A DNA stretch of 61,018 nucleotides from Chiloscyllium plagiosum (Eukaryota). The translations under genes and the position numbers were made by a program. Shown piece after piece: positions 1,380 to 59,898 of this stretch (position 1 is its first letter; each line of letters starts with the position of its first letter). The notes under the pieces were generated by a model, which was not told the DNA's origin, searched no databases, and was given only the letters and a program-made list of their open reading frames with translations. The DNA is taken from NCBI RefSeq assembly GCF_004010195.1, contig NC_057719.1, positions 32,432,988 through 32,494,005 of the forward strand. The letters are read 5' to 3'.

Positions 1380-1538
1380 AATGTTGCTGGAAAAGCACAG
1401 CAGGTCAGGCAGCCTGATGAAGGGCTCCTGCCTGAAATGTCGATTCTGCTGCTGCTTGGATGCTGCCTGACCTGCTGTGCTTTTCCAGCAACATACTCTC
1501 GACTCTGATCTCTAGCATCTGCAGACCTCACTTTCTCT
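1380..1538 (+). mobile_element. Mini PLE derivative, family A: inverted arm + hammerhead + arm + tail, 12-bp TSD
   Basis: TSD tgaggtgaggat at 1368-1379 and 1539-1550. Perfect 33-bp inverted repeat 1381-1413/1462-1494. CTGATGA at 1414-1420, GAAATGTC at 1434-1441. Confidence 0.85.
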
Positions 1539-2493
1539 TGAGGTGAGGATTATGGCAAAGAGATGGTTCTCTCTCTTTCAAAGCTTAAAGCTACAATCGT
1601 GGATGCATAATTTTTTGGTTCAAATACAGCAAAAAGTATCACATCCACTGTTACAATACTTATGGAAAATACCCCTGGGCCCTGGGAAATGAAAAAATTG
1701 AACCAAAGCTGCTATCTCCCTGCAATGTCATTTCAGCTTAACATTTCTGTTGAAGATTGCACATCTTTGGTTAAAAGCTGAGGGAGATTGAAAGAGTTGA
1801 CAGGAAGCTTCACTGTGAGATCCATTTAATCAACTCAAACATAACAGTACATCAGTATGCCTCAGACATACACAGCATCACACATTCCTTTCATTGGAAG
1901 AGAATCAATTGCACAGGTTGAGCTTAAAATAGAAAGAATATGTAATCATCTCTGAAAGTGGAATTTATATCAAACAGTAATCTTTCAAGTGACAAAAATT
2001 GGCTGAGATGAATCATGTGATATCACATCATGAATATGCTACTTCAGTATCAAATGGCTTTTTTTCTGGTTTTCCAATACAGATGAGAAAAAAGAACAGT
2101 TTTAAAGTCAACTATTTGGTCAGAGAGTTTAAATATAATTCACAATATTCTTGAATGAAGTAACACATCTGAAATCTGACAAGGTATCAGAATGCCAAAA
2201 AATATTACTGTTGGTCTGAAAGAATTATCTGGGACAATATTTTTAAAGCCAGTCTTATTTCTAGTCATTCAAGTTGAATTGTGAACTCTATCCTGGAGAG
2301 GCAAATTTGAAACTATTCAAACTAGATTTTAAAATTCTTGGCTGAACATTTGATTTTTTTTGAAATGTCATCGGCATTTTTTTTGCCAGCAGATACACCC
2401 ACCTTAAGGACTGACATTTTCAGCTGTCTGCTTTTCTAGGTTAGGTAAGGTTAATCTGTATCATACTCAGGCATATCAATAATATCCAAAATA

Positions 2494-2572
2494 ATGGTGG
2501 CTCAATGGGTGGTGGCTCATGGGTGGCATGGTGGCTCAGTGGTGAGCACTGTTGCCTCACAGCACCAGGTCC
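2494..2572 (+). mobile_element. HE1-type SINE 5' head fragment with reiterated ggtggctca motif
   Basis: gggtggcatggtggctcagtggtgagcactgttgcctcacagcaccagg matches the other HE1 heads; tggtggctca occurs three times. Confidence 0.75.
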
Positions 2573-3319
2573 CAATATCTAATTGACATATATTTGGTAA
2601 TCTCATTGAATTACAACTAGACAACAGCCAGAGATATCAAAGAACTTGATCAATCAGCATCATTGACTGCTGTGAGTACAAATCTGGAGATAGGCATTGG
2701 CCAGCCAGAAGACAGAGTTATTTTCTTTCTAATTAAAATCTAAACTCTTTCAAATTAGAAAACCTGCTACTTTTTTTTAACAAATTGTCTGAAGTCCCAA
2801 ATTAAAAGAAACAGCAGTCAAATGCTCACAATATCTACAAAACTCTTCTAAAAAAAGCCTACAATAACAGTTTGTATTTCTGAAAAGGCTTACTTGTGTC
2901 CAAAGTTTAGCTTGTTTTGGCATTTTCTTTCTCCAGTTGATTCTGAACTTAAAAGGAAGCATACATGATGTCAATAATTCTTATTTGGTATGAACACCAT
3001 CAACAGATTAGAGCTTGCAACCATAAGCCCTGCATTTCTTGACCTTCAAGGCTATATTTCTTAACACAGCTCTGTTAAAGGGACCAAGGTCAGTGAAGGA
3101 GCAACAGCAATGAAAATAATGAAAAACAGATAGAAAAATGGAAAAAAAAGAAGAAAATTAAATAAAACCCACACTCCACTTTTGGAAAAAAAAAATCAAA
3201 GACCTTCAAAGGGAAATGGAAGGCTTACAGTTAATTATGAAATATGTATCCACTCAAATGATATTTTTCTGGAATTACAACTTGTCAAATAATTTGCAGG
3301 TTTTATTTTGTTCATACAC

Positions 3320-3614
3320 AGGATGAGGATGTCACTGGCTAGGCCAATATTTATTACCCATCCACAATTGCCCAGTGTGTGAGCAGATGAAGATGGCAGT
3401 TTATCCCCCTACAGAACATTAGTAAGCCAGATGGATTTTTTCAACAATCGATAATGGATTCATGATCATCATTAGACTCTTAATTCCAGTTTTCTTTTAT
3501 TGAATTCACATTCCACCATCTGTAATGGTGGGATTCAAACCTGGGTCTGCAGAATATTATCTGGATTTCTGGATTAATAGTCCAGTGATAATATCATTAG
3601 GTTCATTGCCTTCC
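3320..3614 (-). mobile_element. DeuSINE/SacSINE-like tRNA-derived SINE
   Basis: Minus-strand B-box-like ggtttgaatccc, core aaaatccatctggcttactaatgttc and tail gggcaattgtggatgggtaataaatattggcctagccagtgac. Homologous to 45675-46235 and 51555-51920. Confidence 0.7.
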
Positions 3615-3962
3615 CTTTTACAAATCGAGGTTTGAATGATCCCATGGAGTGACCTCTGAAATTCTTGCTTGCTATTGGCCAGGAGGAGCTTTGCAATCTG
3701 GGCTTTCCATGGATGACCAAAAAGATCCAGAAAAGTTCTGGAAGGTACTTGAAGATGAGTTCAAAGCAAAAATTAAGTTCAGGATGAACAAACTCCAACT
3801 CATCTTATACAAACCCCAACCCCAAGAGTTTATTAAGCAGTTTGGTGGAAGAAAGGGAAGGACTGTAACTTTCCAAATGAGGAATTTTCAAATAAATTCA
3901 TCAAATTAGTAATCACCTCTCCACAATTAAACCCTGTAGGAAGACTCTTCTGGATGAGAAAA

Positions 3963-4421
3963 GGGGCAGCACAGTGGCTCAGTGGTTAACACTACTGCCT
4001 CACAACACCAAGGACCCAGGTTCAATTCCAGCCTTGGGTGACTGTCTGTATGGAGTTTGCACATTCTCCCCGTGTCTGCATGGGTTTCCTCTGAGTACTC
4101 TGGTTTCCTCCAGGTAAAAACAATGACTGCAGATGCTGGAAACCAGATTCTGGATTAGTGGTGCTGGAAGAACACAGCAGTTCAGGCAGCATTCGAGAAG
4201 CAGTAAAATCGCGCTGCGGGCAAAAGCCCCACAATCCAAGGATGTGCCGGTTAGCTGAATCAGCCAAGCTAAATTGCCCATAGTGTTCAGGGATGTGTAG
4301 GTTAGGTACATTAGTTAGGGAAAATGTAGAGTAATAGGGTAGGGGAATAGGTCTGGTTGGATTTGTGGATTTGTTGGGCCGAAGGGCCTGGTTCCACACT
4401 GTAGGGATTATATTCTATTCT
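3963..4421 (+). mobile_element. Full-length HE1-type SINE with nested PLE fragment
   Basis: A box gtggctcagtgg, B box ggttcaattcc, body tgcacattctccccgtgtctgc, CR1-like tail gggccgaagggcctg and (ttcta)n. Confidence 0.9.
4111..4229 (-). mobile_element. Family A-like PLE pLTR fragment inside the HE1 SINE, truncated in hammerhead stem II
   Basis: Minus strand reads gggcttttgcccg...tgctgcctgaactgctgtgttcttccagcacc...ccagcatctgcagtc. It interrupts ggtttcctcc|cacaatccaa. Confidence 0.75.
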
Positions 4422-5499
4422 TAAAAGTGATCATACCACTGGCATAATACTTTTGATGGATACAAGAGTGATGTCTTGTGGCAGATCACAACAATTAAGT
4501 GCTTTATGTGTAGCCAACATGATGGCCAAGTCAGTAAAGAGCACTGTACAAACAAAGCCGTGAACACATCCTGCTTGTTACACTTACTCAACAGCGGTCC
4601 AGGTTTTATTTGCATTTGTAATATTTGTGATATTTGTGAAGTCTATTACACGCATGTAGAAGTAATCTGATTCTAAAGGCCAAGCCAGACACCAGAACAA
4701 AATACAGGTGACTGACAAACTGTATAACACCATAACACTAACAGCAAGAAGAGTGTTAAGGCGGTATACAAATGAAGTTCAACATTAAGTAAGAAATAGA
4801 GAAATTTTACAAGAAAACCAAGTTAATTTCACACCATGTCAGTAATGTACAGCAATAAGAAGCTTTTACGACTCCTAAAGTTACATCCTGAAAGACAGAA
4901 TGACATCTCTTAAAAGATAAAACTGACACAGGGATCCAGTGCTAAAATATTACTCCATATCCTTAAAAGATATGTATCTTAGCAAGTGATGGTCCATGAT
5001 ACAATCTGTGAGAGACTATCGCACATCATCAATTCTGTGCATTGGCAAAGTCACACTGCAGTGCAAGTACACTTCCTGAATCTTCTACCTGGTAGATGCC
5101 AATGGTCTAGCAATGTCAGGGCTACCAGTATGTGTAAATCTCAGTACAGTCATAATTCATGAGATTCAAAGCACACTCACTGTAGTAGAACAGACCACAT
5201 ATGACACACTTGAATCAGTCAAGACCTTAAAAAGCAGTACCACTTTGATGTAGTCAAAAACTTAAAGGATGACACAATATTTCATCTCAAGGATGATGTT
5301 ATGGGGAAAAGGCAGGAAAATAGAGTTGAGGATTATCAGACTAGCCTTGATCTCATTCAGATTTGATGGGCTGAATGGCCTGATTCTGCTCCTTCGTCTT
5401 GTGCTTTTACAAGGAAATAATTCCTATATTTGTAAAACCAAGACGCACATACTCCCTTTCGATACTGCTTTGTATTTCAAGTCATGAGCTATTGGAGCT

Positions 5500-6470
5500 A
5501 ATTCCTCATGAACTCATGGCTAATGATATTTACAAGGCAAGGTAAGATTTTTAATGGTATTTTCCAGATGGCATGAAAATGAGTGAAAGAGCAAAGTGTG
5601 TGGAGGACCTGAAAGTATGCAGAGGAATAGAGATAGATTAAGTGAGTGGGCAAGGGTCTGCAAATGGAATACAATGTTGATAAATGTGAGGTCATCCATT
5701 TTGGTCAAAATAACAGCAAAATGGACTATTATTTAAATGGTGCAAACATGAGCATGTAGCTGTGCAGAGGGACCTGCGTATCCTTGTGCATGAATCACAA
5801 AAAGTTGGTTTGCAGGTGCAGCAGGTATTTCAGAAGGCAAATGAATGTTGCCTTTATTGCTAGAGGGATGGAATTTAAAAATAGGGAAATTATGCTGCAA
5901 CTGTATAGTGAGGCCATACCTGGAGTACTTTGTACAGTTTTGGTCTCCTTACTTGAGAAAGGGTGTATTGGCACTGGAGGGTGTGAAGAACGGGTTCCCT
6001 ATGTTGATTCCAGATTTGAGAGGGTTAGCGTATGAGGAGAGACTGAGTAGACTGGGGCAATACTCATTGGAATTTAGAAAAATGAAGAGGAATCTTATAG
6101 AAACTGATAAAATTATGAAGGAATAGATAAGATAGAAGCAGGGAGGTTGTTACCACTGGCTGGTGAAACTAGAACTAGAAGGCATAGCCTCAAAATAAGG
6201 GGGAGTAGAATTAGGACTTAGTTGAGGAGGAACTTCTTCACCCAAAGTGTTGTGAATCTATGGAATTCCCTGCTCAGTGAAGCAGTTGAGGCAACCTTGT
6301 TGAATGTTTTTAAGGCAAAAATAGATGTTTTTGAATAGTAAAGGAATTAAGGGTTATAGTGAGTGGGCACGTAAGTGGAGCTAAGTCTATAAAAAGATCA
6401 GCCATGATCTTATTGAATGGCAGACGAGGCTGGATGAGATAGATGGCCTACTCATGCTCCTAGTTCTTAT
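5500..6470 (+). mobile_element. CR1 LINE, 5'-truncated (RT C-terminus + 3' UTR)
   Basis: WQMEYNVDKCEVIHFG, VRPYLEYFVQFWSPYLRK and YEERLSRLGQYSLEFRK; 3' UTR gatcagccatgatcttattgaatgg. Confidence 0.92.
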
Positions 6471-8690: not shown

Positions 8691-8871
8691 TGGATTTATA
8701 ATTGCCTTCATTCATCCCAGATAGCCATTAATTGCCCATTCAATACTTAAATGGACATTCTCATATGTTGGAGGTAGTGGGAGTAGTCACCTCAGGCTCT
8801 ATGTTTCCCCTAATTACCCTAAATCCTGGTGAATATGTTGCAACAAAATTGGGTTTAAAGACATTAAAAAA

Positions 8872-9208
8872 AACAAAATAAAATAACTGCAAATGCTGGA
8901 AATCAGAAACAAAAACAAAAATTGCGGGAAAAACTCATGATGTGAAGGAGCTGGTGTTGGACTGGGGTGGACAAAGTTAAAAATCACACAACACCAGGTT
9001 ATAGTCCAACAGGTTTATTTGGAAGCACTAGCTTTTGGAGATTGCTCCTTTATCAGGTAGCTGATGAAGGAGCGGCGCTCTGAAAGCTAGTGCTTCCAAA
9101 CAACCTATTGGACTACAACCTGGTGTTGTGTGATTTTTACCTCTGGAAAATCTCAGAAAGTCTGGCAGCATCTGTGGAGACAAAGTAGAGTTAACATTTT
9201 GGTCCACT
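8872..9208 (-). mobile_element. Family D PLE pLTR fragment hosting the family B hairpin insertion
   Basis: actgcaaatgctggaaatcag...ggaaaaactc [insert] ...gtctggcagcatctgtggagacaaagtagagttaac; homologous to 22795-22927 and 26960-27095. Confidence 0.7.
8935..9140. mobile_element. Palindromic double-hammerhead mini-element, family B, copy 1
   Basis: About 80-bp inverted arms 8978-9056/9061-9139 around a gtag loop, plus a 43-nt unpaired tail. CTGATGA-A-GGAGC-ggc-GCTCT-GAAA-GCTA at 9061-9089, with a degenerate mirror copy on the minus strand. Confidence 0.85.
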
Positions 9209-9837
9209 GATTGGTCAATTTAAATGTACCAATCGCACAACAAGAATTGACATTGGTTCTTTATTTGAAACTAAAAATATAAACATAGTGAACTGGATGT
9301 ACAGTATTTCTAATCCTGCTGCTTGCAGACTGACTAGAAGTCATAGACTAATTAAGGGTACATTCACCTCATATCTCGAAATCTCCCTTTTTTCCAAAGA
9401 TTTACCTTTAAAGAATCAACTATTTCTGTGACAGCAAAGCAAAAAAAAATTAAGTCTGAGTGAACTATTAAGCAAAAACTAAACATTTACAAGTATCTGA
9501 AACATCAGTGGTTTGCTTGTCTGTCTAGACTTAGCCATTGTGATCTTTGCAGGAGGCTGCTGTACAATTTCAGAATGTTAGCTAAGGTTGCTTTGTTTGT
9601 GTTCTCTTTTAGACTGTGTTCTGTTTGCAATAGTGTTACTCGGTGTTTCTGATTGTGGTATAGATCTGAGTTAGCATGTTTTGTGCATTACTGTGAATAG
9701 GTATTCAGAGACTTGGGGATGTCTGTGCTGAAGGTGGTCTGACCATTTTAGGGTCTTGACAAATTGGAGGTGACTGTGCTCAATATGGAGTTACACAATA
9801 AAGCATATGAAGGTTATAGTTCTTATTTTCTTCCTCC

Positions 9838-10631: not shown

Positions 10632-10843
10632 GTCATGATTTTAAGGTGCCAGCGTTGGACTGGGGTGGATAAAGTTAAAAAAATACACAACACCAGGTTA
10701 TAGTCCAACGGGTTTATTTGGAAGTACTAGCTTTCGGAGTGCCGCTCCATCATCACAACCACCTGTTGAAGGAGCAATGCTGCAAAACTAGTGCTCCCAA
10801 ATAAACCTGTTGGACTATAATCTGGTGTTGTGTGATTTTTAAC
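10632..10843. mobile_element. Palindromic double-hammerhead mini-element, family B, copy 2, 10-bp TSD
   Basis: TSD caaataaata at 10622-10631 and 10844-10853; arms and tail as in copy 1. Confidence 0.88.
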
Positions 10844-12055: not shown

Positions 12056-12097
12056 TCATTGGGTACATCCCAAACAAGTCTTGGCTGAGAGCAGTGC

Positions 12098-12278
12098 TTG
12101 GGTGAATGGGGGTGGGGATGAAGGTGATAGGTCAGAGAGGAGGGTGGAGTGGATAGGTGGAAAGGAAGATAGGCAGGTAGGACAAGTCATGGGGACAGTG
12201 CTGAGCTGGAAGTTTGGAACTGGGGTGAAGTGGGGGAAGGGGAAATGAGGAAACTCTACAAGGAGCAGCCAACTGCTC
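12098..12278 (-). mobile_element. PLE 3'-region fragment between 18-bp direct repeats
   Basis: cttggctgagagcagtgc at 12080-12097 and 12279-12296; the minus strand has gacctatcacc in a pyrimidine tract, as at 1-60. Confidence 0.55.
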
Positions 12279-22056: not shown

Positions 22057-22312
22057 TGGATACTGGCGATCTGGAACAGAATAGAAAGTGCTTGAGAAAC
22101 TCAGGAGGTCTGGTAGCCCATAGAAAGACAAATAAAGCAACATACTGAGTTCCATGACCCTTCATCTGAGGAGCAGGAGAATTGATGTTTCAAGCATAAG
22201 CCCTTTATCAGAACAGGGTCACTGGATTTGAAGGGGTAACTCTGTTTTTCCCTCGAGAGATAATACCAGACCTGCTGAATTTCTACAGCATCTTCTGTTT
22301 TTGTTTCCAACT
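22057..22312. mobile_element. Composite of decayed PLE pLTRs (D-like minus arm, family A minus hammerhead, D-like plus arm)
   Basis: Three degenerate hammerhead cores between about 22135 and 22240; the outer arms are loosely inverted. Confidence 0.55.
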
Positions 22313-22794
22313 TTATTTGAAAGAGCCATTGCCTCAGTAAGTGTGATGGGGGTGAGACGTGATGAGGGATTTGCTACAGAAAATAAGCAAAACAAATGAA
22401 CAAGTATTTTCAGCTTTGGAGAAAAGGAAGCTTTGTTCAAGAAGTGTATTGCCAAAATGTAGTGATTGCAATGAGCTCAGCTGGGTAGGTCACAAAGAAG
22501 ATGAGTTCGCTGGTTGAGGCTGTTAATCTGGTCCAACAGGCAGTCCTGGCTGACAGGTAAGACACGGAGTGACAGACCTCCTGTTCACTCTGAGAGCTGG
22601 CTCTGAGTGTCAAGTACTATGGACATGTAAATAAAGTGTCATTTGGTGACAGGATACTGGCTTCAGTGGAATTATTTCACCAACATTATTCAAGGTTCAT
22701 CTCTGGCTTTAAAGTAAGATTCAAAAACAAATTGCAGTTTTTTCTTATTAATGTAACAAACATTAGAAGTAGAAATAAACACAGCTATTAATAA

Positions 22795-22927
22795 AAACCA
22801 AAAGAACTCCAGATGCTGTAAAACAGAAACAAAAACAGTAATTGCTGGAAAAGATCAGCAGATCTGACAGCATCTGTGGAGAGAAATTACAGTTAATGTT
22901 ATGGCTCTGGTGGCCCTTCCATAGAAC
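22795..22927 (-). mobile_element. Solo PLE pLTR, family D, 14-bp TSD
   Basis: TSD acagctattaataa at 22781-22794 and 22926-22939; the 5' end begins at the degenerate hammerhead stem I (gttct). Confidence 0.8.
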
Positions 22928-23367
22928 AGCTATTAATAATATTGGTATTATCAAGAAAATATAAGTCAGAGCAGTAGGTGGAGCTGAGAGGATGTAGAAT
23001 ATTTTGGAAAGAAAGGACTATTAAATTGGGCAGGTTTATCACCTTATCAATAAGGGTTGGCATAATTACTTAAAGTAACAGAAGGTGCTATGGCATAACT
23101 GTTACAAGTAAAAGTGAATAAAAATAGCAACGTCTACAGCAGAATCGTGGGAGGTGCTGCAGAAGAGTGAAATATACAATGAAAAAGCATGAAACCCTTA
23201 GGGTAAAATGTAAGAGCAACAAGCCCAGAGAAATATGGATGTTTAGAAGTGTTTAGGACTGGTTAAGGAGAAGGGGAGAGACAGATAATAAGTTCAAAGT
23301 TTGGGAGAAGATTTGTAGCTCGGGTGCTCGTGTTGTGGTTCTGTTCGCCGAGCTGGGAATTTGTGTT

Positions 23368-23407
23368 GCAGACGTTTCGTCCCCTGTCTAGGTGACATCC
23401 TCAGTGC
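23368..23407 (-). ncRNA. Minimal type I hammerhead ribozyme, family C, core intact
   Basis: GCA-CUGAGGA-U-GUCACCU-agac-AGGGGAC-GAAA-CGUC-UGC: stem I GCA/UGC, stem II with one mismatch, palindromic ACGU in place of stem III. Confidence 0.8.
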
Positions 23408-24266
23408 TTGGGACCCTCCTGTGAAGCGCTTCTGTGATGTTTTCTCCACCATTTATAGTGACTTGTACCTGCCACTTCCAGTTGTCAGTTCCAGCTGTCC
23501 GCTACAGTGGCCGGTATATTGGGTCCAGGTCGATGTGCTTATTGATTGAATCTGTGGATGAGTGCCATGCCTCTAGGAATTCCCTGGCTGTTCTCTGTTT
23601 GGCTTTTGTACACCAGAACTGCAAAAAGAGGAAGAAGAACACCTATATAATGTATTCGCCAAAAATGGATACCCCCGCAATTTCATCAACAGATGCCTAA
23701 GGGAAAGACAACGGAATGAGGACATGCCACAACCCAAAGGACTAGCCACACTACCATACATCAAAAACATTTCCGAACTGACAGCCAGACTACTGCGACC
23801 GCTAGGACTCATAACAGCACACAAACCAACAACCACTCTCAGACAATAACTCACCAGGAGGAAGAACCCGATACCCAACATGAGCAAAACCAATGTAGCG
23901 TACAAATTCCCATGCAAGGATGCACAAAACACTACATAGGACAAACAGGAAGACAGCTAACGGTCCGCATCCATGAACACCAACTAGCCACGAAACGACA
24001 TGACCAGCTATCCTTAGTAGCCACACACTCAGATGACAAGCAACATGAGTTCGACTGGGACAACACTACTACTTTAGGACAAGCCAAACAGAGAACAGCC
24101 AGGGAATTCCTAGATTCCACAGATTCAATCAATAAGCACATCGACCTGGACCCAATATACCGGCCACTGCAGCAGACAGCTGGAACTGACAATCGGAAGC
24201 GGCAGGTACAAATCACTATAAATGGCGGAGGAAACATCACAGAAGCGCTTCACAGGAGGCTCCCAA

Positions 24267-24306
24267 GCACTGAGGATGTCACCTAGACAGGGGACGCAAC
24301 GTCTGC
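24267..24306 (+). ncRNA. Hammerhead ribozyme, family C, with core mutation GAAA to GCAA
   Basis: Identical to the 23368-23407 motif except at position 24297. Confidence 0.7.
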
Positions 24307-26959
24307 AACACAAATTCCCAGCTCGGCGAACAGAACCACAACAATAGATAATAAGTGCAAAGGAAGTAGGACAATGGAGGAGCATGGAAAGTGCAGCAGG
24401 GAGCTCAAGAAAGCAATTAGGAGAGGAAAGCCGGGGCATGAAAAAGTGCTGTTGGGCAAGATTAGGGAAAATCCCAAGACATCCTACAAATATTTCAAGG
24501 GGACAAGAATAACTAAGGTAAGAGTAGGGCCATTAGGGACCAACAGGACAATCATTGCATAAAGCTGGAGGACATTGATAGTGTGTTAAGTGAATACTTC
24601 ACATCTGTCTTTACTCGGGGAAGTAGATGCAAGTACAGTATTTGAGAAGGTGGATTGTGAAGTCCTTGAGCAGTTTGACATAGGGAGTGAGGAAGTACTG
24701 GATTTTTTGGTGGATTTGAAAGTAGACAAATCCTCAGGCTTGGATAAGGTGTATCCTAGGGTGCTGGGGAGGAAATAACAGGGATGCTGATTCCAGATTT
24801 TTAAATTGTTTCTTGCCTCAGGAGTGGTGCCAAAGGACTGAAGGAGAGCAAATGTGGATCCATTTTACAAAAAGGGTGGTAGAGATAGATTCGGAAACTG
24901 TAGACCAGAGAGTCTCGGATCAGTGGTAGGGAAACTATTGGAAAAAATAGTGAAGAAGAAAATTAATCTTCATATACAGAGGTAAATTTTAATCAGGGAT
25001 CATCAGCTTGGCTTTGACAGAGAGAGGATATGCCTAACAAATTTGATTAAATTTGTTTAAGCAGCTGGCCAAGTGTGTAGATGAGGGTATGGCGGTTCAT
25101 GTAGTTTATATGGTCTTCAGCAGAGCCATTGACAAATCTCACATAGGAAACTGAGAAAGAAAGTAAAAGCTATGGGATACTGAATAATTTGGCAAATTGG
25201 ATCCAAATTTGGCTCGGCGGTGGGAGTCAGAGGGTGGTAGTAGAAAGCTATTTGTGTGACTGGAGACCAATATCCAGTAGCGTTCCACAGGGACAAATGC
25301 TGGGTCCTTTAATATTTGTGATATTCATAATGAGAATATGGGGTGAGTGATAAGTAAATTTGCGCATGACACACAGATTTTCCGGGTGGTTGACAGTGAG
25401 GAGGAAGGCCTCAGGTTCAGGAGGTCTCGGTGAGTTAGTCAAATGGGCAGATCAGTGTCAAAAGGAATTTAGCTCCGATAAATGTTGGATGATGTAGTTT
25501 GAAAGAAGCAACAAGACAAGGATGTACTCAATGAATGGCAGGTCACTAGGAAGCTCAGAGGAACATAAAGTGCATGTCCACAGACCCTTGAAAGTGGCAG
25601 AACAGGTTAACTAGGAGGGCTAGTCAAGATGGCATGCTGAATGCTTGCCTTATCAGTCGAGGTTTGGATCATAAGAGCGGGGAGGTTATGTGGGAGCTGT
25701 AAGTAACTTGCTTAGGCCACAGCTGGAGTACTGAGAGCAGTTCTGGTTACCACACTATTGGGAGGATGTGAGTGCACTGGAGAGAGTGCAGAGGAGATTC
25801 ACCAGGATGTTGCCTGGGATGGAGCATTTCAGCTATGAAGAGAGGCTAATTAGGCTCATGTTGTTTTCTTTGGAGCAGAGAAGGTTGAGGTAGGAACTGA
25901 GAGACGTATAGGATCATGACAGGCATGGACAGTGTGAATAGAAAGTAAATGCTCCCCTTAGCCAAAGGGTCGATAGCAAGGGGAACATAATTTTAAAGTG
26001 AAAGGCAAGAGGCTTAGAGGGGATTTGGGGAAAAAAGTTTTTCACCCAAAGGGTGGTGGGGGTTGTGAAATGAACTGCCTGGAAAGATAGTTGTTGCAGG
26101 AAACCCCACAACCTTTGAAGTATTTGGATGAACACTGAAAGTGTCATAACATTCAAGGCTATAGCCCCATAGCTGGAAACTGGGACTAGTGTAAGTTGTA
26201 GCATATCTTTGGCAGTACAGACTTAATGGGCCAAAGTGCCTCTTTTATAGTGTATGATTCTTTGATCATATCTGGGAACTATGATGCTTTAGCAATTTGA
26301 AATTACTATTGAAACCAGATTTTCTCATAACACTCACAGTCTGCATCTGGCGCGTTTGCCTTAAATTCAAATTGGCGTGGATATAAGTGACCCTCGACAG
26401 CCTTTCATTCCGGCTACTGTATTTGGGCCATTTGTATTTTCTCACCATCTCTTGAGGAAGCAGTCAATTTAGAATGGTTTTCGATATTTTGCAGTCTTAA
26501 ATCTTTTGGAAAATACAGAATCATAGAATGGTTCCAGCAGACATTAATTTCATCGAGTCCACGCTAAATCTGTCTCTCAAGGGCTATTAGGGATGGGGAA
26601 GTAAATGTAATCTGGTCAGTGATACCCACATGTTGGAAAGAAACAAAAAATAGAAATGAATTAAATTTAACTAGTTTCAATTCCTCACTCTTGCAGACAC
26701 GCAAATCTTTACTTTCAGAAGTTTATCCAATTTCCATTTGAAGACAACAATTACATCTGACTTTGTCACTCCTGCAAGCACAAAGATCAGAACGACTTGC
26801 TGCATTAAAAAAAAAGCTTCTCCTTCACATCATCTTTGTTTTCTATCATCAATCAGCTAACAACTATAATTCTCATCGTCCACAATAGACTCATTAAACC
26901 ACATGGTTCAGGACAACACTAGAATCTTGGGGCATCCAGAAGATCAACTTGCCCAACAA

Positions 26960-27095
26960 GTTCTGAAGGAGAGTCATTGGACCCTAAATGTTAACTCTGC
27001 TTTCCCTCCACAGATGCTGCTAGACTTGCTGGGTTTTTCCAATAATTTCTGTTTTGGTTTCTGATTTCCAACATTTTCAGTTCTTTGGGTTGTTT
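26960..27095 (+). mobile_element. Solo PLE pLTR, family D, degenerate hammerhead at 5' end
   Basis: gtt-ctgaagg-agagtc-attg-gaccc-taaa-tgtt-aac, then tccacagatgctgctagacttgctg. Confidence 0.7.
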
Positions 27096-28194
27096 TTTGC
27101 CAAGTGTGAGCTATGGTTGCAGCTCAAATTTTACAGGCAAAATTGACATTCTGTAATTTGAGCACGAGATTGTAACTGCAGCAACTGGAATTCACACCTT
27201 GTACTTCCATAGTAATTTCATCTGCAGATTTTTATCATTTGGGCCAATGTATGATGCAGGAAATCAGGGGAGGAATTTCATTGGATCTTTATTCCGATTT
27301 GCAGCTGAAATCATTGACTGAATGTAAAATTGGCTGCATCCTGCATCAGCTAAAGAACACAAGCAAATCACAGGAAACAATATTTGTTAGTGCAAAGGTC
27401 AAGTGCTGTGAGGGTCAAATGTATTGTGCACATGTGCTGAGAACTGACAATATTGGATGGATGGGGCACAAGACTCAAGGTTTTATTTGTGACTCTTAAC
27501 TGACTCCAGGGAAAATAGAATCCACAAAGTAACTTGATAATAAATCAAACAATATCTGAACACACAACTGTTGCAGTTTTACAAATAATCCATTGTAAAG
27601 AAAGGAATACATGTGTGGTTCAGTAGAAGAATGAACCGTTCAGATTTACAAATCCTTATTTATTGATTGATTTAAAATCCATTTGCGGTTTAGAATTTTC
27701 TAATAGGGTTTAAATGACAAAACTTTCCAATCCTTTATGTGCTTGTCAGTGCTGTGTTTTAAAAGAAACTGCAGCCTCTTGTGTTATGGTGGCCTTAGTT
27801 ATAATCTAGGGTCTTGCTGAGAACATACTCAGTTTATTACTTGTCACTTCTATGCCATTATAACAGATTACTGAAGTGTAAAGTGTTTTGGGCCTGAGGG
27901 CAGATTACAAATTTAGAATAGATCATACTCTGTCATTTTGTGATCTGTCCTTTGAAGAAAAGCATAACAGAGTTCAGCAATATTTTTTATATTGCATTTA
28001 TTTCTTTAATGTGGAGTACTGCTATACAAATTTTATTGATGGACCTTTAGATAAAAGTGACTGCCTCCGATAACCCATATGGCAAAGAAACAAAAAGTTT
28101 GTATTGTTCTTGTTCCTATTGGAAGTATATAATATTTTTGTTGTTTTTTGCTCCTATTTTGTTTTTGCCACTGTGATCATAATAAAGTACATTA

Positions 28195-29640
28195 CATCAT
28201 TTATGACAGAGAAGGAGGCCAATCGGCCCATTGACTTTATGTCAGCTCCTTCCCAGCAGCCCCATTCCACTGGTCCCTATCGCCATACAAGTTTATTTCC
28301 TTCAAGAATTTCTTGTCTGAAATCATTTGATTGTTTTAACATCTACCACCTTCGTGCGAAGAGGGGTTCTGGATCATTACCACTTCCGATGTAAAACATC
28401 CTTCCTCACGTTTCATCTGCATAATTTATCCAAAATCTTAAATCTTTACATCCTAGTCCTTTTACTAAGCTAATGTGAAGAGTTTTCTCTTGTCTATCTT
28501 GCCTAAACCTTTTATTGTCATATACATCTCCATGAAATCTCCTTTAATTCAAGGAGATTAATTTCAGTCTTCCCATCCTAACCTTGTAGTTAAGCCACCC
28601 AACCCTGTCGTACCCACCCCACCCCACCCCACCCCTCCTCCATGTCTGGAACCATTCTGATAAATCTCCTTTTCCCCCTTTCAAGTATCTTCACATTTTT
28701 CTTGAAGTGAAGTGAACAGAACCAGATGCAGTGTTCGAGTTGGGACTTAAACATTTGAGTACACCTAGGATCACTACAGCTTTACATGGTTTTGTAAATA
28801 ATGCTTCTATTTCTGAAGCCCAAGATTGCATGCATTTTGTTAACCACATTCTCAATATGTCCTGTCACCTTCAAAGATCTGTACAAATGAACTTCTGGGT
28901 CTCTCTGTTCCTCCTTAGAACTGTGCCATTAAGTCTATGTTGCCCTTCCCTATTCCTTCAGTTCAAAAGAATCACCTCACACTTGTCTGTATTAAATTTA
29001 ATTTGCCCCTTGTCTGCCCATTCCTCTTATCTGTTTATGTCTTTTGCAGGCAATTCATTTTGGCTTTATTATTTGTTAACGCTCCAAGCTATGTATCATC
29101 GACAAATTTTGAAATATCATTTATTCCGAGATTGAAGTTATATAACACACAGGTCATGATCCTAGCACTAGGGAATAACATTGAATACCAAACTCAAGTA
29201 TGAAAACAACATCTATTATGACCTATTTTCTGTTCTTAAGCTTTTTTAAAAGCCCAATTGGACTCTGAACCTTGTATTCTATATGACTCAAATTTTGTTA
29301 ACATGCCTTTTATGCTTTTATAAAAATCTGTACAGTCAGCATCCAACACTTAACCTTGACCAAAATTCTCTCAGAATACCTCAAGTTGCATAATCTTACC
29401 TTTACTGCTTCTCAACCCCAATCAAATGGACTCCTCTTGTCCCTTCATGAGAATACTCTCTTCCCAATATTAAAATATCTTTCTTAAATATTGTTACCTC
29501 CTGATCTCAGTTTTTCCCTTTTTTCCCTTTTCTGAAAATATTATATCATTTTATATTCAGTGCTTAGTCCTCACCATTTTAAACTTTGTGTCCACATATC
29601 TACTACATTCCACTCCCACATGGTTAATTGTATTTTAGCA
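28195..29640 (-). mobile_element. Old CR1 LINE fragments
   Basis: Minus-strand W.D.GQIKFNTDKCEVI, PNSNTASGSVH region and CR1 tail aatgggccgattggcctcc. Confidence 0.75.
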
Positions 29641-29645
29641 TATCA

Positions 29646-29774
29646 TTCCTGATTAAGGGCTTATGCCCGAAACATTGACTCTACTGCTCCTCGGATGCTG
29701 TTTGATCTGCTGTGGTTTTCCAGTGCCACACTTTTTGACTCTTATCTCCAGCATCTGCAGTCCTTACTTTCTCC
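29646..29774 (+). mobile_element. Solo PLE pLTR, family A, starting at the hammerhead, 13-bp TSD with one mismatch
   Basis: TSD ttttagcatatca (29633-29645) and ttttagcttatca (29775-29787); ttc-CTGATTA-A-GGGC-ttat-GCCC-GAAA-catt. Confidence 0.82.
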
Positions 29775-29853
29775 TTTTAGCTTATCAAGTTTATTCATCA
29801 TATTATGCATGTATATACTATATAAAATATACATTGTATTTGTGTGTTTGTAT

Positions 29854-34607: not shown

Positions 34608-34693
34608 GGAGAAAGTGAGGACTGCAGATGCTGGAGATCAGAGCTGAAAAATGTGTTGCCGGAAAAGCGCAGCAGGTGAGGCAGCATCCAAGG
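34608..34693 (-). mobile_element. Family A pLTR tail fragment without hammerhead
   Basis: ggagaaagtgaggactgcagatgctggagatcagag...gcagcatccaagg. Confidence 0.8.
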
Positions 34694-36779: not shown

Positions 36780-38986
36780 CAAACGATCAGTCCTCAGCAA
36801 AGGCCTTACCTTTGTCGCCCTCCGTCCACACATCAATGAATTCATTACGCGTTGTGACGTAGAACACTTCTTCCACTGCCTCCACCTCCAAACTTACTTT
36901 TTCAATCAGGACTCCTGCTTCACTCACCTCCAACACACTCCATCCACCTGGACACCCTGTGCTGGCCTATTACCCACCCTCGACCTCTTCATTTCCAACT
37001 GCCGAAGAAACATTAACCGCCTCAACTTGTCTAACCCCCTCCCCCACTCCAACCTCTCACCCTCACAACGCACAGCCCTATACTCCACCTGCTCCAATCC
37101 CAACCTCAACATCAAGCCAGTAGATAAAGGAGGTGCAGTGGTAGTTTGGCACACTGACCTCTACATCGCTGAAGCCAGACGCCAACTCGAAGACACCTCC
37201 TCCTACTGCCCCCTTGACCATGACCCCACCCCCATCACCAAACCATCATCTCCTAGACCATACACAACCTCATCACCTCAGGACACCTCTCCCACCCACA
37301 GCTTCCAACCTCATAGTCCGGGAACTCTGCACTGCCCAATTCAACCTCCTTTCCAAGATCCAAGCCTGACCACCCCAGCCGAACCATTGTCTCAGCCTGC
37401 TCCTGCCCCACCGAACACATCTCCGCCTACCTCGACATTGTCCTATCCCTCCATTTCCATGAACTCCCCACATACGTTCGAGACACCACCCACACCCTCC
37501 ACCTCCTCCAAGATTTCTGTTTCCCCGGCCCCCAACACCTCATCTTCACCATGGACATCCAATCCCTCGACACCTCCATCTGCCATGAACAGGGCTTCCA
37601 AGCCTTCCGTTTCTTCCTCTCCCGATGTCCTCAACAGTACCCTTCTGCTGAACTGGTCCTCACCCTTAACAATTTCTCCCTTGAATCCTCCCACTTCCTC
37701 CAGATCAAAGGAGTAGTCATGGGCACACGTATGGGCCCCAGCTATGCCTGTCTCTTTGTCGGCTACGTAGAACAGTCCATCATCCGTAGTTACCCAGGTA
37801 CCACTCCCCACCTCTTCCTCTGCTACATTGATGACTGCGTCGGTGCCAAATCGTACTCCCGCGAGAAGGTCGAGCAGTTCATCAACTTCACCAACACATT
37901 CCACACTGACCTTCAAATCACCTGGACCATCTCTGACACCTCCCTCCCCTTCCTGGACCTCTCCATCTCCATCAATGACGACCGACTTGACACTGACATT
38001 TTTTACAAACCCACCGACTCCCGCAGCTACCTGGATTACACCCCTTCCCACCCTACCTCCTGCAAAAATGTCATCCCATATTCCCAATTCCTCCGCCTTC
38101 GCCGTATCTGCTCCCAGGAGGACCAGTTCCACCAAGGAACACACCAGATGGCCTCCTTCTTTAGAGACCGCAATTTCCCTTCCCACGTGGTTAAAGATGC
38201 CCTCCAACACATATCATCCACATCCTGCACCTCTGCCCTCAAACCCCACCCCTCCAACCATAACAAGGACAGAAACCCCCTGGTCCTCACCTTCCAACCT
38301 ACCAAACTTCGCATAAACCGCATCATCACTGACATTTCCGCCACCTCCAAAAATACCCCACCACCAGGGATATATTTCCCTCCCCACACCTTTCCGCTTT
38401 CCACAAAGACCGTTCCCTCCGTGACTACCTGGTCAGGTCCACATCCCCAAAAAGCCACCCTCCCCTCCTGGCATCTTCCTTTGCCACCGCAGGAATTGCA
38501 AAACCTGTGCCCACACCTCCTCCCTCAGTGCCATCCAAGGGCCCAAAGGAACTTCCACATCTATCAAAGTTTCACCTGCACATCCACCAATGTCATTTAT
38601 TGTATCCATTGCTCCCGATGCGGTCTCCTTTACATTGGGGAGACTGGACGCCTACCCACAGAGTGCTTTAGGGAACATCTCTGGAACACCCTCACCAATC
38701 AACTGCACCGCCCAGTGGCCCAACATTTCAACTCCCCCTCCCACTCTGCTGAGGACATGCAGGTCCTGGGCCCCCACCTCCATCCACCTATTGCACTCTT
38801 GGCTACCTTCTCCCCAGGTCCAACCCCCCTCCCATTTAACTCTCCACCCCAGAGGCTCCCTCCCTTCATTCCTGATGAAGAGCTTTTCCCCGAAACAACG
38901 ATTTTCCTGCTTCTCGGATGCTGCCTGACCGGCTGTGCTTTTCCAGCACCACTCTGATCTCCAGCATTTGCAGTCCTCACTTTTGC
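36780..38986 (+). mobile_element. Penelope-like element (Neptune-type), long RT-GIY-YIG ORF with frameshifts, 3' pLTR family A
   Basis: SVLSKGLTF, IKPVDKGGAVVV, KGVVMGTRMGPSYACLF, YIDD (37824-37835), LPFLDL, CHRRNCKTC zinc-finger-like linker (about 38471-38513), NVIYCIHCSRCGLLYIGETGR; CTGATGA at 38872 and GAAA at 38892. Confidence 0.95.
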
Positions 38987-54160: not shown

Positions 54161-54168
54161 CTTTATGT

Positions 54169-54369
54169 ATCACACAACACCGGGTTATAGTCCAGCAGGT
54201 TTGTTTGGAAGCACTAACTTTCAGAGCGCTGCTTCTTCATCAGGTGCTTGTGTGAAGGAGCAGCATTCTGAAAGCTAGTGCTTTCAAATAAACCTCCTTG
54301 GACTATAATCTGGTGTTGTGTGATTTTTAACTTTGTCCACCCCAGTCCAACACCAGCATCTCCAAATCA
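54169..54369. mobile_element. Palindromic hammerhead mini-element, family B, copy 3, 13-bp TSD
   Basis: TSD ttctttatgtatc at 54159-54171 and 54370-54382; tail on the right. Confidence 0.88.
54209..54249 (-). ncRNA. Minimal type I hammerhead ribozyme, family B, with 6-bp stem I
   Basis: AAGCAC-CUGAUGA-A-GAAGC-agc-GCUCU-GAAA-GUUA-GUGCUU. Confidence 0.72.
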
Positions 54370-55244
54370 TTCTTTATGTATCTTATTCTAGTCAATTGGT
54401 GGCATCAGTCTTCTGAACCTTTAAAAATAGCATTGGCCCATGTTATTTAGAGAATTATTTTTGATCAAAGGTATAACTTTGAAAGGATCTGAGTTACGAA
54501 CAGATGTGCTCTTATCAAAATAAATCCTTTTTAAAGTGTGGATCTTGTATCAAATGTAGAGCACTTGAGGAGCCTCACTGAATGTTTGTGAGTCTTGCTT
54601 TCAACCACCCTTAGCAACCCAGCAGACACTAAAGACAGTGGAGACTACAAATGTTGAGGATGACTGCAGATAACTGCAAGTGATCTCAATATCAATGGTT
54701 GCAACTGTTAATGGACCTACTTCAGCAGTAACACTTAGTAAGGATATTAAGAGACCTTTTAGCTGTTCCATTTTGAAAAGAAGTAACTAACACATGGGTC
54801 ACAAGCGATACATGAGCAAGAAAAAGCAAGACCTGACAATATTTTTTTGGATTCTTTTTATCACTGCAAGTAACTATTGAATTCTAAGAAAAGTACAATG
54901 AATATGCATTGAGATGAATGATGTGCATTCAATTAAAATGTTTACAGAAAAGTAAAATATTTGATCTAACATTTAAGCATGATTCAGAGAAGGAAATTTA
55001 TATAACACTGTCTGGGACAGCAGCAAAGAAAGCCTTGTGTATCAAAAAACATTCAAATTGTAGTTGTAAGTTGCTTTTTAATTACGTTATAATTTAGTTA
55101 GTCCATTCCTCATAAAACAAAAGACAGATAACACATACCTTCCTGTTAAGTATAAAGAAAAGCAGATCATAAACATTCTGGGGGGTCACTGTGAACCAGA
55201 AATGTAACTGGACCAGTCATATATAAACATTGTGATTATAAGAA

Positions 55245-55500
55245 CAGATTAGAGGCTGGGATTTGTGCAATAAGAAATTCAACTCCTGACTCCCCAAAAC
55301 CTGTTCACCATCAAAAAACCAAATTCTGGAATGCATCGGAATACTTTCCACTTTCCCAGATGAATGCAGTTTTAGAACATTGAAGAAACGTGACACAATC
55401 TAGGGTTGAGCAACCTGCCCAATCAGTGGCATATACAGCTTCCTAAGTATTCACTACCTTCACCATCGATGCAAATTGGCAATAGTGTGTACTAGACACA
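55245..55500 (+). mobile_element. Old CR1/L2-group LINE fragment
   Basis: Homologous to 670-930. Confidence 0.6.
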
Positions 55501-55502
55501 AT

Positions 55503-56220
55503 TGTTACAATCCCTGTAAAGATTGATAACCATTTAAGAGGAAATGGTTATCATGATGTCAGTGGAAAGAAAACCAATGAATTAGATTTCATTTTTTAAA
55601 GCTTGCATTGTAATAAATCAGTGCAAACCAATATAATTCAAACATCAATTAACAAACAAATAATACCTCCTCTCAAAAAAGGAAATTTCACTTGAAGTAG
55701 TCAACGCAAAGATACATATCACGTAATTACAAGTATTCATATTACATCCCACACAAATGTGGTAACAGTGTGATCTTACAGTCTTTCCAACTAAGTCTCC
55801 GATATATGGATCTTTCAGTTCCCACTCAATGGTTCAGTCCTTGAGTTACTTTCATCAGTAGGTGGATTTCATCTGAAGTTTCCAGATTTAGTTGACATTG
55901 ATAATGCACTCTTCTGTGATCTCTCTTTCTTTCTCTCTCTCTGTCTCTCAGATCTGGCTAGTAGTGATGGCAGAGCGTTTCAGATTTCTTTTCCAAGCAA
56001 CCAACTAATCCACTCGGTGCATGGCCGGGTCGTCTAATTCAAATGCTCTGCTTGATCACAGGCTGCTTTATTAAGAGCCTTTTGAGTTGTAAATGTCTTC
56101 TCACTGCCAAACAACAAATTGGGTATTCATAAAAAGTTTGCACAGTTCTACGAGCCAATAACCTGCAAGTTTTAGGATAATGGAGATGAAATTAAAACAG
56201 AGACCTCAAAAGGTCACGAA
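55503..56220. mobile_element. Possible solo LTR
   Basis: Starts tgttaca, contains a (ct)n tract and is abutted by CR1 on the right; no TSD seen. Confidence 0.3.
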
Positions 56221-56221
56221 T

Positions 56222-56790
56222 TAATTGAGACATATAAGATGATCAAAGGGTTAGATAGGTTGGATAGTGAGACCCTTTTTCCTTGGATGGAGATGAGTAG
56301 CACAAGGGGACATAGCTTTACATTGAGAGGTGATAGATATAGGACAGATGTCTGAGGTAGTTTCTTTACTCAGAGAGTAGTATGAGCATAGAACGTATTG
56401 CCTGCAACATTAGTAGACTTGCCAACTTCAAGGGCGTTTAAATGGTCATTGGATAGGCATATTGATGAGAATGGAATAGTGTAGTTTAGATGGGCTTCAG
56501 ATTGGGTCTACAGGTTGGCGCAATATCGAGGGCCGAAGGGCCTGTACTGCGCTGTAATGTTCTACGTTCTATGAATCTGTGGAATTCTTTATCCCAGAGT
56601 GTGGTAGCTGCTGGAACATTGAGTAAATTCAAGGTGGAGATAGACAGATCTTTCATTATTAGTGGGTTCAAAGGTTATGGAGAGCATGCAACAAAGTAGT
56701 ATTGAAGCTAAGGTAAGATCAACAATGATTGTATCAAATGGCAGAGCAGGTTCAGAGGATTGAATTGTTGAGCTCTTATGTAACATATCA
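56222..56790 (+). mobile_element. Two abutting CR1 3' ends
   Basis: LIETYKMIKGLDR...RSSFFTQRVV with tail gggccgaagggcctg(ttcta), then a second NLWNSLSQ..KFKVEIDR with its 3' UTR. Confidence 0.9.
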
Positions 56791-59690
56791 TTATGGTTCA
56801 AGCTTTCTATTTATTTAAGAAATGGCAATATCCCAATAGATTCTTTCCTCAGCTCCCTCTTCTCCAGAGAACAGAATCTCAAACTCTTCATATAATTTCA
56901 AATACTCTGTCTCCAAAACCACCTCCTTACTACTTTACTCTGTTTTAACTACCTACACTGATTTACTGAATTAATGCAATGAAATTTGAGGTGATGTTTC
57001 ACTTTTTAAAATTACTTTTCTAATTGTTAAACTTCTGCCAGATGAATACTGCTCCTTTCCTTTAACAGAATTGGACAATACAGAACTGAAAGTCCTGGCC
57101 CATATTTCAATCACTAGAATCATTGTCAACCACATCCAGGAAATAGTTTTCCAGTGGCAGGAGCTCAGGCTACCTCTCTGCCGTAGATAATTGGGTTGAC
57201 CTAAAAGGAATTCATGTTGCCTTGAGTTCAGCCGTTGTCCCTTGTCAGCTGTCACCTAACAGCAGATACACCTTTCAATAGTTTCTTCCATCTGGCAACT
57301 GTATTTTCTTTCTGAGAGGGCCTTTACTTTTGACTTTTTCTTGATGGCTGATGTTCCTGAGAGATTTTAGTCAACTTGATAGGTTGGGAATGATTAAATG
57401 TTCACTGTGTAGAATATCATCCTCAGTGACAGCAAACCAGTTACAGTTGCCAGTAGTCTGCTTTGAACCTGTGCTGCTGAGTGGAACTCCAGACACAATG
57501 ACCATTTTTACACATCTAAAACATCTCCCCAGGAGTACTCCTGATCTCCTGTTGAAATTGTGACAGATCATGAAAACTCTCAGTGAAGGCAAGTATCTGT
57601 AAACTGAGCTCATAAATCAAGTCTATTCCACATATCCATAGGCCCTGTAGGAATTTATGAATTATATTCATGTCTTCTGAACTCTTATCTAGTTCATTCA
57701 AAATTATTCAAAAAACTCGCATAACTAATCTTAAAATAGATTGTTCACATTTACAAAGACAGACAATGTTATTTAACTTCTGGTACAAGCACACTGCAGT
57801 TTGTTATTAACGTGAACCATAGTTAAAGATGATGAAACACATCAACCCTTCCTCAACATCAAACTTATATTAATCAGTTTAGAAACTATCCATCTCATTC
57901 TCAGGTTGTCCTATTGGCTACGATGGACATCTTCTGTGAGAGATGTTAGATAATAAACGGAATCAGAAAGACAGAATGGGTAAAGCTGACCAATTTTGGT
58001 GGCACAACGCCAGATTAACCTCAGATCATTGCCAAGTGTCTAGGGCAGCCAAATAAAATAAGTGTTAGGTCCTTCCATATGCTGATGAGAAACCTCTGTT
58101 GGAATTTTCCCATTCCAAATCAGACAGGGTTGGCAAACATAACGCCAGCCAAGTGGTGCAGCCAGAAGGCCCTTTTTCTATTTCCACCAGACAGACAGGC
58201 AGCAGGCCTGATACTGTCCTATCTTCTAGCCATCATTGGGGAATGTATTTGTGTTCTCCTTCTTGGAAAGTTTTCTGAATTTCTTTATCGGTGTTTAGCA
58301 GCTGTTGAGTTTCTACATATTGCGTGGAAGTGGAAGACATTAAGTAATTTTGTTGAACACCTTTGATTGCTATTAAGTTCAGAAATATTCTGAGGTCAGA
58401 TTGATTTTTGCAGGATTGATGGCTCTTGAATGCAGCTTTTACAAAGAACTTCACTAATATGTTCATAAATTGGAAAAGGGTTGGGATGGATAGTTGGCTT
58501 CCCTGGACACTAGGCAAATATCTGAGGCTAATCTGGCATAGTGATGCACAATTGGCCAGTTTTACCCACAATTCCTTCTGGATTTATTTATCACCTAACT
58601 TTTACGGAAGATGTTCATTGTAGCAAAGAGGGTGATCTGAGAATGATATTGATAATTTCTCAACTGACTGATCTTAGATTGGTGTTGGGGGGAGGTGACA
58701 TTGTGGAAACGTGGATGATGAATATAGTGAGGGGCTTGAAGGGAAAAACCTTTAAATCTTAACACAATATTACAATGTTCTAAGGACATTTTAGCCATGC
58801 TTTGAGGTCTTCTGGAAGGAATTGGACGTTTAACTTGCCTGCTCCAGAATCAGTCTGCCTCCAACCTCAGTTCTGACTAATTGGATAACAGACCAGCCTT
58901 TGGGTCAATTAAGTCTCTAGTCAATTAAGCTGCATTCCCTGGCAGCATGGTGACACAGATGGATGGGAACGTGATTCAGATTCAGTCTCAATTTTCATCT
59001 CCCGGAGGAAAGCTTCAGCTCTAAGCTTTCTGTTCCAAAATGATGAACTAGATGAACTACAATCTCTAAAGTGGTTCAGGTGTATGCCCCTTTCCTCAAA
59101 GGTTTTCTGGGTGTTTTTTGTGACATAAAAATGTGATTTCTTTTTTTTTTGAACGGAGCCAGAAGGAGTTGAAATGATTCTTTTGGCTTTATGGCAGAGG
59201 ACTGATGGTGCCTTGTGATCCAACCCAATTCCATTTTCCTTTCCACCTTTAACAGCATTGCAGTTGTGGGGTCAACTGGTTCAAAAATGACCAATGACCA
59301 ATGAGCAAACTACTTCTGGAACCCAGACACCCATCCAGAAGCAGCTCACTCAAATTATTGCAATGGTCCAGGTACAGATAAGCCTCATGTTTCTGGACAC
59401 TGTCTGCACAGTAATGGTTTCACATCTGACAATAAGCTGTACCCCTTTTCTATCCCAATATGTTCTAGTCTCTCCTCTTCTAACATCCAAAGACCACTTT
59501 AAATATGACATTTGTCTTGATAGACAACATTTCATAAAACAATCTTTACTTAGATTCTGTATTCAATTTTTCCAAGCTCTTCCATTGGTGCTTCCAAGTC
59601 ACCTGACCAATGTTTAGTGCTATTTAGGCAGAGGAGAGTAGTCAACTGTAAGAATCCATTTTGTTACATATCCATGGCACATGTATCTAT

Positions 59691-59898
59691 TTTAAATATC
59701 ACACAAAACCAGGTTATAGTCCAACAGATTTAGTTGAAAGCATTAGCTTTCGGAACGCTGTTCCTTCATCAAGTGGTTGTAGGAGCAACGCACCAAGTGC
59801 TAGTGCTTCCAGGTAAACCTATTGGACCATAATCTGCTGTTGTGTGATTTTTAACTTTGTACACCCCAGTCCAACACTGGCACTTCCAAATCATGACT
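59691..59898. mobile_element. Palindromic hammerhead mini-element, family B, copy 4, 9-bp TSD
   Basis: TSD tgtatctat at 59682-59690 and 59899-59907; arms and tail as in the other copies. Confidence 0.85.

Follow-up and report, generated by a model that had tools for sequence, protein, structure and literature searches.

Short Penelope-like insertions of Chiloscyllium plagiosum end just 5′ of the hammerhead core, at a near-constant distance from a TATA-like box

We have analyzed a stretch of 61,018 nt of the Chiloscyllium plagiosum genome (contig NC_057719.1, positions 32,432,988 to 32,494,005; the window) that contains insertions of four families, A to D, of Penelope-like elements (PLEs). These carry a hammerhead ribozyme in the pseudo-long terminal repeat (pLTR), and many of the insertions are short, being either direct copies or hairpins of two head-to-head arms. 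A preliminary description of this DNA proposed that their 5′ ends and inversion points cluster at the ribozyme core. Positions in the elements are numbered without a zero, taking the C of the core CUGAnGA as +1 and upstream positions as negative. The insertions are as follows, with no strand given for those in head-to-head arrangement.

1-193, + strand: long copy of family A, passing the core at 120 into the 3′ untranslated region (UTR) and cut by the window start; an exception
1381-1412, − strand: inverted arm of a family A hairpin, element positions +50 to +81
1413-1538, + strand: sense arm of the same hairpin, −1 to +125, starting at −1/+1 (1413/1414)
4112-4229, − strand: family A (A3) copy with its 5′ end at +9 in stem II, inside a repeat resembling a short interspersed element (SINE)
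8937-9145: family B hairpin, arms +121 to −7 and +1 to +86
10635-10843: family B hairpin, right arm from −8/−9 (10755), left arm to +2
22058-22307: family D hairpin, with a family A piece at 22163-22211 (+49 to +1) in the junction
22790-22927, − strand: family D direct copy starting at about −3, within its 14-nt target duplication
23293-24344: long head-to-head insertion of family C (Poseidon-like), cores at 23404 (−) and 24270 (+)
24217-24223, + strand: TATAAAT box of C1 (−53), with a predicted start 30 nt downstream at 24247 (−23)
26959-27097, + strand: family D direct copy starting at −4
29646-29774, + strand: family A direct mini-copy, −3 to +126, with a 13-nt duplication at 29633-29645 and 29775-29787
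34608-34693, − strand: family A copy cut off at +41; an exception
37918-38986, + strand: family A (A3) long copy with broken reverse transcriptase (RT)-thumb/GIY-YIG remains, 3′ UTR and core at 38872; an exception
54169-54370: family B hairpin, left arm to −9 (one mismatch), right arm from +5
59692-59894: family B hairpin, left arm to −8, right arm from about +8

The coordinates first described are reproduced within 1–3 nt. The hairpin at 1381-1538 is flanked by a 16-nt target duplication (1368-1383 and 1539-1554); its reported inversion exactly at CTGATGA (1414) is found for the sense arm, but not on both sides, as the inverted arm covers +50 to +81. Other ends lie where they had been placed, i.e. 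three nucleotides before the core for the copy at 29646 (−6 if the three letters shared with its duplication are counted), in stem II for the copy ending at 4229, and at stem I for the family D copies at 22927 and 26960. In the four family B hairpins one arm ends at −7, −8/−9, −9 and −8 respectively and its partner at +1 to +8, so that they do invert at or within about 10 nt of the core, with differing junctions. The ends at −7 and −9 were assigned by eye or local alignment, and exact matching gives 4, 9, 3 and 8 nt. The copies at 1-193 and 34608-34693 and the long copies are indeed exceptions.

Judged by their sequence features, the four families fit endonuclease-bearing (EN+) PLEs. Long copies of A, B, C and D1 have GIY-YIG remains (YIGET/YIGQT motifs) upstream of the pLTR, and the pLTR holds a minimal hammerhead comprising, in 12 of 13 subfamily references, the core, helix II, GAAA and a helix I of 2–4 pairs. 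A tail of 30–40 nt at one end, an inverted 5′ copy and target duplications are all present. Pfam gave no match for the broken RT-thumb/GIY-YIG piece in the window, and Rfam none to the hammerhead motif there. The 3′ ends fall at about +90/+125 in A, +84/+121 in B, +97/+132 in D and +75/+113 in C. The cleavage site was placed by the known numbering of the hammerhead. It is predicted to lie after +28 (A), +29 (B), +30/31 (D) and +34 (C), with a motif as in PMC4209133; the same paper reports for Schistosoma the U3-A8 core variant that replaces C3-G8 in family D1 (L045, L159) and some B copies. A CX2-5CxxC linker ahead of the endonuclease marks the Neptune clade (PMC8557442). The linker (CX4CxxC in A and D) is present in A1, A3, D1 and D2, was not found for B, which is unplaced, and is absent before the endonuclease motif in C. 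We read family C as Poseidon-like, a placement by motif without a tree.

We sampled 160 evenly spaced 10-kb stretches of the 3.56-Gb genome (1.6 Mb, including 61,543 N), and mapped 579 arms against 13 subfamily references built from long copies, each with 200 nt of upstream sequence. Further loci served solely for references and duplication mapping, and not for rates. The set of all arms used for rates numbers 488. The main rates are for arms that reach at least +60 with their 3′ end and have 85% identity or more, 370 of A, B and D and 31 of C. Bias in detection from subfamily-specific upstream sequence is real but small: nine arms were reassigned as longer copies of other subfamilies, with a false rescue of 1/450. 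For subfamilies D3 and D4 there are no long references, the sample containing none of their long copies, and the alignments of many old D arms are short. Extrapolation from 398 insertions in 1.54 Mb gives ∼0.9 million genome-wide.

Among the 370 arms of A, B and D, 126 5′ ends fall at −10 to −1 in 1443 nt at risk, i.e. 8.7% per nt (confidence interval 7.3–10.4), made up of 79/977 in A, 22/297 in B and 25/169 in D. This is ∼20 times the flanking rate. The edge is sharp upstream, with 0.2–0.6% per nt at −11 to −120 and 0.85% at −121 to −190, a stretch where the references weaken. Downstream there is a tail, falling from 1.5% per nt at +1 to +10 to 0.9% at +11 to +24, 0.6% at +25 to +32 (the cut site) and 0.4–0.5% at +33 to +60, and neither stem II nor the cleavage site has a comparable peak. 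The rate at −10 to −1 is 7.9% per nt for all 488 arms, and 63/702 for young arms alone. Counted by insertion, the furthest end lies within −10 to +10 in 83/176 of A, 24/55 of B, 24/54 of D and 3/29 of C, and at −10 to −1 family C has only two ends in 245 nt. The pile-up just 5′ of the hammerhead core is real and beyond chance in A, B and D; the clustering across families first proposed thus holds for these three and fails for C. The histogram of the sample is neither uniform nor driven by length, which rules out truncation at a constant rate or by length alone. The low rate at the cut site leaves cleavage products as at most minor templates, in agreement with the preliminary description.

That description had also offered the folded ribozyme as an RT stop or template-switch signal. 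The mild rise in rate from 0.6 through 0.9 to 1.5% per nt between +32 and +1 is in keeping with such an effect, as are the 12 A and B ends at +29 to +32 compared with five at +33 to +36. Loss driven by homology at hairpin junctions would, however, be expected to give this rise. A structure should halt RT at its 3′ foot, yet that of the ribozyme (+20 or +32) reaches only 0.6–0.9% per nt, whereas the peak lies on the 5′ side, after RT has traversed the entire fold, and B ends are 5–6 nt past a 3-bp helix I. Moreover the region −60 to −5 folds weakly (0 to −9.9 kcal/mol), there is no peak at the C ribozyme, and products in vitro follow template length (PMC11167929). We therefore regard halting or switching of RT at the folded hammerhead as unlikely.

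All 13 subfamily references have a TATA or TATA-like box 30–32 nt 5′ of the stop. In long copies it is found at −30 to −39 in A (59 hits in 82 copies) and D (37/38), at −35 to −44 in B (14/18) and at −45 to −54 in C (36/59), and in all families there are few elsewhere in 130 nt. The spacing from such a box to a transcription start is 30 nt. This places box + 30 at −3 to −5 in A, −5/−6 in D, −8/−10 in B, and −17/−18/−20/−23 in C, where it is always the G of GCTTC. The stop shifts with the box, lying at about −4 in A and D, −8/−9 in B and −23 in C1. Ends in B lie further upstream than those of A and D together, with at least 6 templated nt in 13/27 compared with 24/111 (Fisher p 0.008, arms with none dropped), and three of seven duplication-mapped direct copies of B start at −8/−9. 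In long copies of A the box reads TTATCT (−33 to −36), which we take to be the reverse of a GATA site. D2 carries both TATCT at −44 and CATAAAA at −35.

In family C1 the box + 30 position and the helix I boundary can be compared directly. We used genome-wide patterns that forbid the three reference letters preceding a position, and in 11,549 copies these gave 115 ends at −23, 19 at −13 and 16 at −3, i.e. 2.2, 0.37 and 0.36%. The helix I boundary (−3) is therefore at the background rate, contrary to a role of the ribozyme as stop signal, and 2.2% is seen at box + 30. Fetched contexts, selected by prefix rather than at random, were true ends in 18 of 20 cases and deletions in two. Of the first 100 matches at −23, two classes that could have been produced by homology alone account for 37 and 21. 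The 42 that are left, corresponding to 48 after scaling, still exceed the 14 at −3 and 11 at −13 that remain when the controls are pruned alike (p ≤ 2e-4). The stop of family C thus lies 20 nt upstream of its ribozyme rather than at the ribozyme itself. Two hairpin arms of C3/C5 finish at their own box + 30, judged by eye. Given that the box stands 30–32 nt upstream in all references and that the stop moves with it, the ribozyme is probably a bystander at the stop.

The same ends could be generated if a 5′–3′ nuclease trimmed a longer RNA as far as the base of a fold or of a protein footprint, at helix I in A and D and at a hairpin in C, and RT then ran off the trimmed end. The stops meet helix I in A and D and the conserved hairpin foot in four C references, no specific cap G is seen, and an anole ribozyme folds only with protein (PMC11167929). 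Yet the stop at −8/−9 in B is not at a helix foot, helix I of C is at background, and it would have to be coincidence that four families whose 3′ UTRs are unrelated share a constant box distance. Trimming is in our view rather improbable, but in A, D and C the stop also marks the base of a fold, which makes trimming a real rival. A splice acceptor at helix I was also considered, given a pyrimidine run and AG in D1 and an intron end there in Drosophila virilis, and was rejected as the short copies share no upstream exon.

The 108 head-to-head pairs comprise 103 junction types, of which three are repeated. Recurrent junctions, also seen genome-wide, sit on homologies of 2–4 nt, and target duplications of 8–23 nt are present in 39 of 47 young hairpins. 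As the junctions are mostly unique and flanked by target duplications, descent from masters alone, or length alone, is refuted; the mini-insertions arose repeatedly and independently, as had been supposed. SINE-like re-amplification of mini-copies from a few short masters might be argued from the repeated types, from one C junction found in 5/20 contexts, from two trinucleotide classes that make up about half of the first 100 A matches at −4, and from D3 and D4, which lack a long copy in the sample. But the repeats lie on short homologies, either arm may bear the tail, mini-copies bear the diagnostic letters of long subfamilies, and two C copies that share one junction differ in architecture (the question of the shared C junction rests on three copies). 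Such re-amplification seems very unlikely to us. A SINE class does not fit either, given the diversity of junctions and the box missing from short copies.

In 98 of the 105 pairs from A, B and D, one short 3′ end (about +84 to +97) is combined with one long (+121 to +132). One of the remainder has two long and six have two short ends, some because the D2 reference stops at +105. The stop is reached only by the arm with the long 3′ end in 28 pairs and only by that with the short 3′ end in 23; both arms reach it in 23 and neither does in 31. The two arms of a hairpin resemble each other more than do members of the family taken at random, with a median of 0.915 compared with 0.846 (n = 68), and palindromic junctions are common. 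Both properties would suit self-priming, where one cDNA folds back or primes on an antisense template as in PMC3846280, and the stop is a by-product. However, both arms are at the stop in the 23 pairs, some loopless or with filler letters, the outer ends match two priming sites, and direct copies with an identical 5′ end would be left unexplained. We give self-priming hardly any weight. One C insertion elsewhere (L306, G000:C1:2245330-2245605) has several template switches, comprising an inverted pLTR, −23 to +4, an inverted piece of open reading frame (ORF) and another pLTR.

The interpretation that we prefer, and consider fairly probable, is that RT is primed within the RNA, ∼90 and 125 nt downstream of the core, and runs off the 5′ end of the transcript, and that two such cDNAs join head to head. 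We infer that the box is the promoter, that the stop is the capped start and that the two cDNAs anneal. The pLTR box would direct a transcript beginning 4–9 nt ahead of the hammerhead core in A, D and B, and RT would prime at two internal sites, about +90 and +125, that are taken from the literature and matched by the 3′ ends here. These sites would adjoin the 5′ end of the RNA, whether the pLTR concerned is the 5′ one of a full element or the 3′ one of a truncated copy retaining the box. Because the sites are near the RNA 5′ end, RT would run off after about 100–130 nt, as for retroviral strong-stop DNA. A single cDNA joined to the target would give a direct mini-copy; two cDNAs, one per site and per target strand, would anneal by short homology to give the hairpin. 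The mini-insertions are then likely complete copies of the first 95–135 nt of the RNA, and not truncations at the ribozyme. Retroviral minus-strand strong-stop DNA also arises when priming takes place internally, close to the 5′ end of the RNA, and RT runs off, and in L1 twin priming two primers yield an inversion. Here, in contrast, the target DNA would serve as primer once nicked, the short product becomes integrated and, unlike in L1, both arms duplicate the same stretch.

Several observations weigh against this interpretation. Family A has a second tier of ends at −6 to −8 (19/88), and B a second mode at −4 (10/34), partly from a subfamily missing from the references. The A box reads TATCT rather than TATAAA. 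The C1 stop at −23 is used in ∼2% of copies, compared with roughly half in A, B and D, and the C patterns covered single positions, with that for −23 including a second C1 variant. The start predicted from the box falls at the base of helix I in families A and D. In all four C references it falls at that of a conserved hairpin, and in C1 also at that of a 10-nt palindrome. A start at a capped end should leave an extra G before the ends. G is above its genome frequency there, but equally so at control positions: at −4 in A the ratio is 27 G to 19 A (two recurrent junctions removed) compared with 15 to 11 at a +15 control (p 1.0), and in C a G precedes the end in 25/42 at −23 but also in 9/16 at −3. 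Few duplication-mapped direct copies have the extra G. The +15 control is dominated by partner arms ending at −4/−5, and the G enrichment at controls probably comes from purine-rich partner arms. The transcript start offered as an option in the preliminary description agrees with the box + 30 position, but the extra-G test does not exceed its control. Single-cell polyA reads of a related organism (one of two raw runs) on an A copy and a C copy, mostly from passive copies, showed no position where many molecules begin or end. Reads on family C (window 23290-23600, run X21) are ∼8:1 from one strand, unlike those on A, which hints at sense transcription in the related organism.

Some further features of these copies may be recorded. 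The B hairpin at 8937-9145 is nested in a family D copy (8875-9210), and elsewhere an A copy interrupts a C copy precisely within the latter's hammerhead core (L147:7774-7900). The A piece in the D hairpin at 22058-22307 could reflect cross-family template switching or a later insertion. Upstream pieces of A3 and C stand alone without a ribozyme at 12101-12216 and 23776-23833. The SINE-like repeats appear to be of a shark type. Past +127, right after the long 3′ end, family A has a pyrimidine run and TAG resembling a splice acceptor (L041:3480-3900, L003:1506-2000, L137:7333), with a likely ORF start ∼45 nt beyond it at the same loci.

The closest known system is PAc, the Poseidon of Anolis (Frangieh et al. 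2024, PMC11167929). It likewise has two internal priming sites ∼110–130 nt past the hammerhead with the tail between, both strands extended and no RNA ends at the cut site. With the purified protein, priming is internal, 111–118 nt into an ORF starting at stem II, and the product lengthens with the template's 5′ end, with or without an active ribozyme. The available text of that paper gives no genomic distribution of 5′ ends, start site, or account of mini-copies and hairpins. Published PLE hammerheads resemble ours in their short helix I, bulged long helix II, palindromic helix III and U3-A8 variant (D1 here), and are mostly single motifs ascribed to truncated PLEs, with some opposite-strand pairs; their authors propose cleavage and circular templates, whereas here the 5′ ends lie 30–57 nt upstream of the cut. 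Earlier descriptions (Craig et al. 2021, PMC8557442; Arkhipova et al. 2013, PMC3846280; Schostak et al. 2008, PMC2377424) share the inverted head-to-head pLTR, one-ended tail, target duplications and pLTR promoter, but treat the ends as variable truncations and ascribe palindromes to antisense self-priming. TATA and Inr (initiator) elements were noted in rotifer pLTRs (PMC3846280). In D. virilis Penelope the transcript start lies within the pLTR, but 121 nt upstream of helix I with an intron between them, and the promoter is internal and lacks a TATA box (PMC2377424). Non-LTR retrozymes (bioRxiv 10.64898/2026.07.22.740005) are also non-coding, related to the pLTR, hammerhead-bearing and dispersed as many monomers, but are defined by head-to-tail tandems and circles. 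The present units do not belong to that class, being single or head to head, with ends at the cut window at 0.6% per nt. A literature search, covering neither supplements (notably Fig. S2 of PMC11167929) nor subscription papers nor Repbase notes, found no description of a PLE 5′-end pile-up or of run-off at a start site. The elements, ribozymes, tails and inverted ends were known already; what is new is the analysis of rates, the test in family C and the cap control that failed.

How PLEs finish a copy, form inverted ends and use the hammerhead is open in the field (PMC11167929), and PMC2377424 saw no obvious route to regenerate the pLTR. We tentatively suggest, as a possibility that we would not favor on present evidence, a PLE strong-stop step. 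In this, transcription from the pLTR promoter would begin at the foot of the hammerhead, cap-adjacent priming would make a cDNA of 95–135 nt, and its joining to the target, its twin or another template would give mini-copies, hairpins and perhaps partial tandems that regenerate the pLTR, with the ribozyme at the tip of the capped mRNA. If so, cutting would take off the cap, and the ribozyme would be a dimer-dependent switch rather than a genome-processing scissor. Annotating units of this kind as SINEs or as random truncations is to be avoided. Roughly half of those in A, B and D end at one predictable nucleotide, giving base-level predictions of the start site for 13 subfamilies, and they are likely a genome-recorded map of how PLEs start and duplicate.

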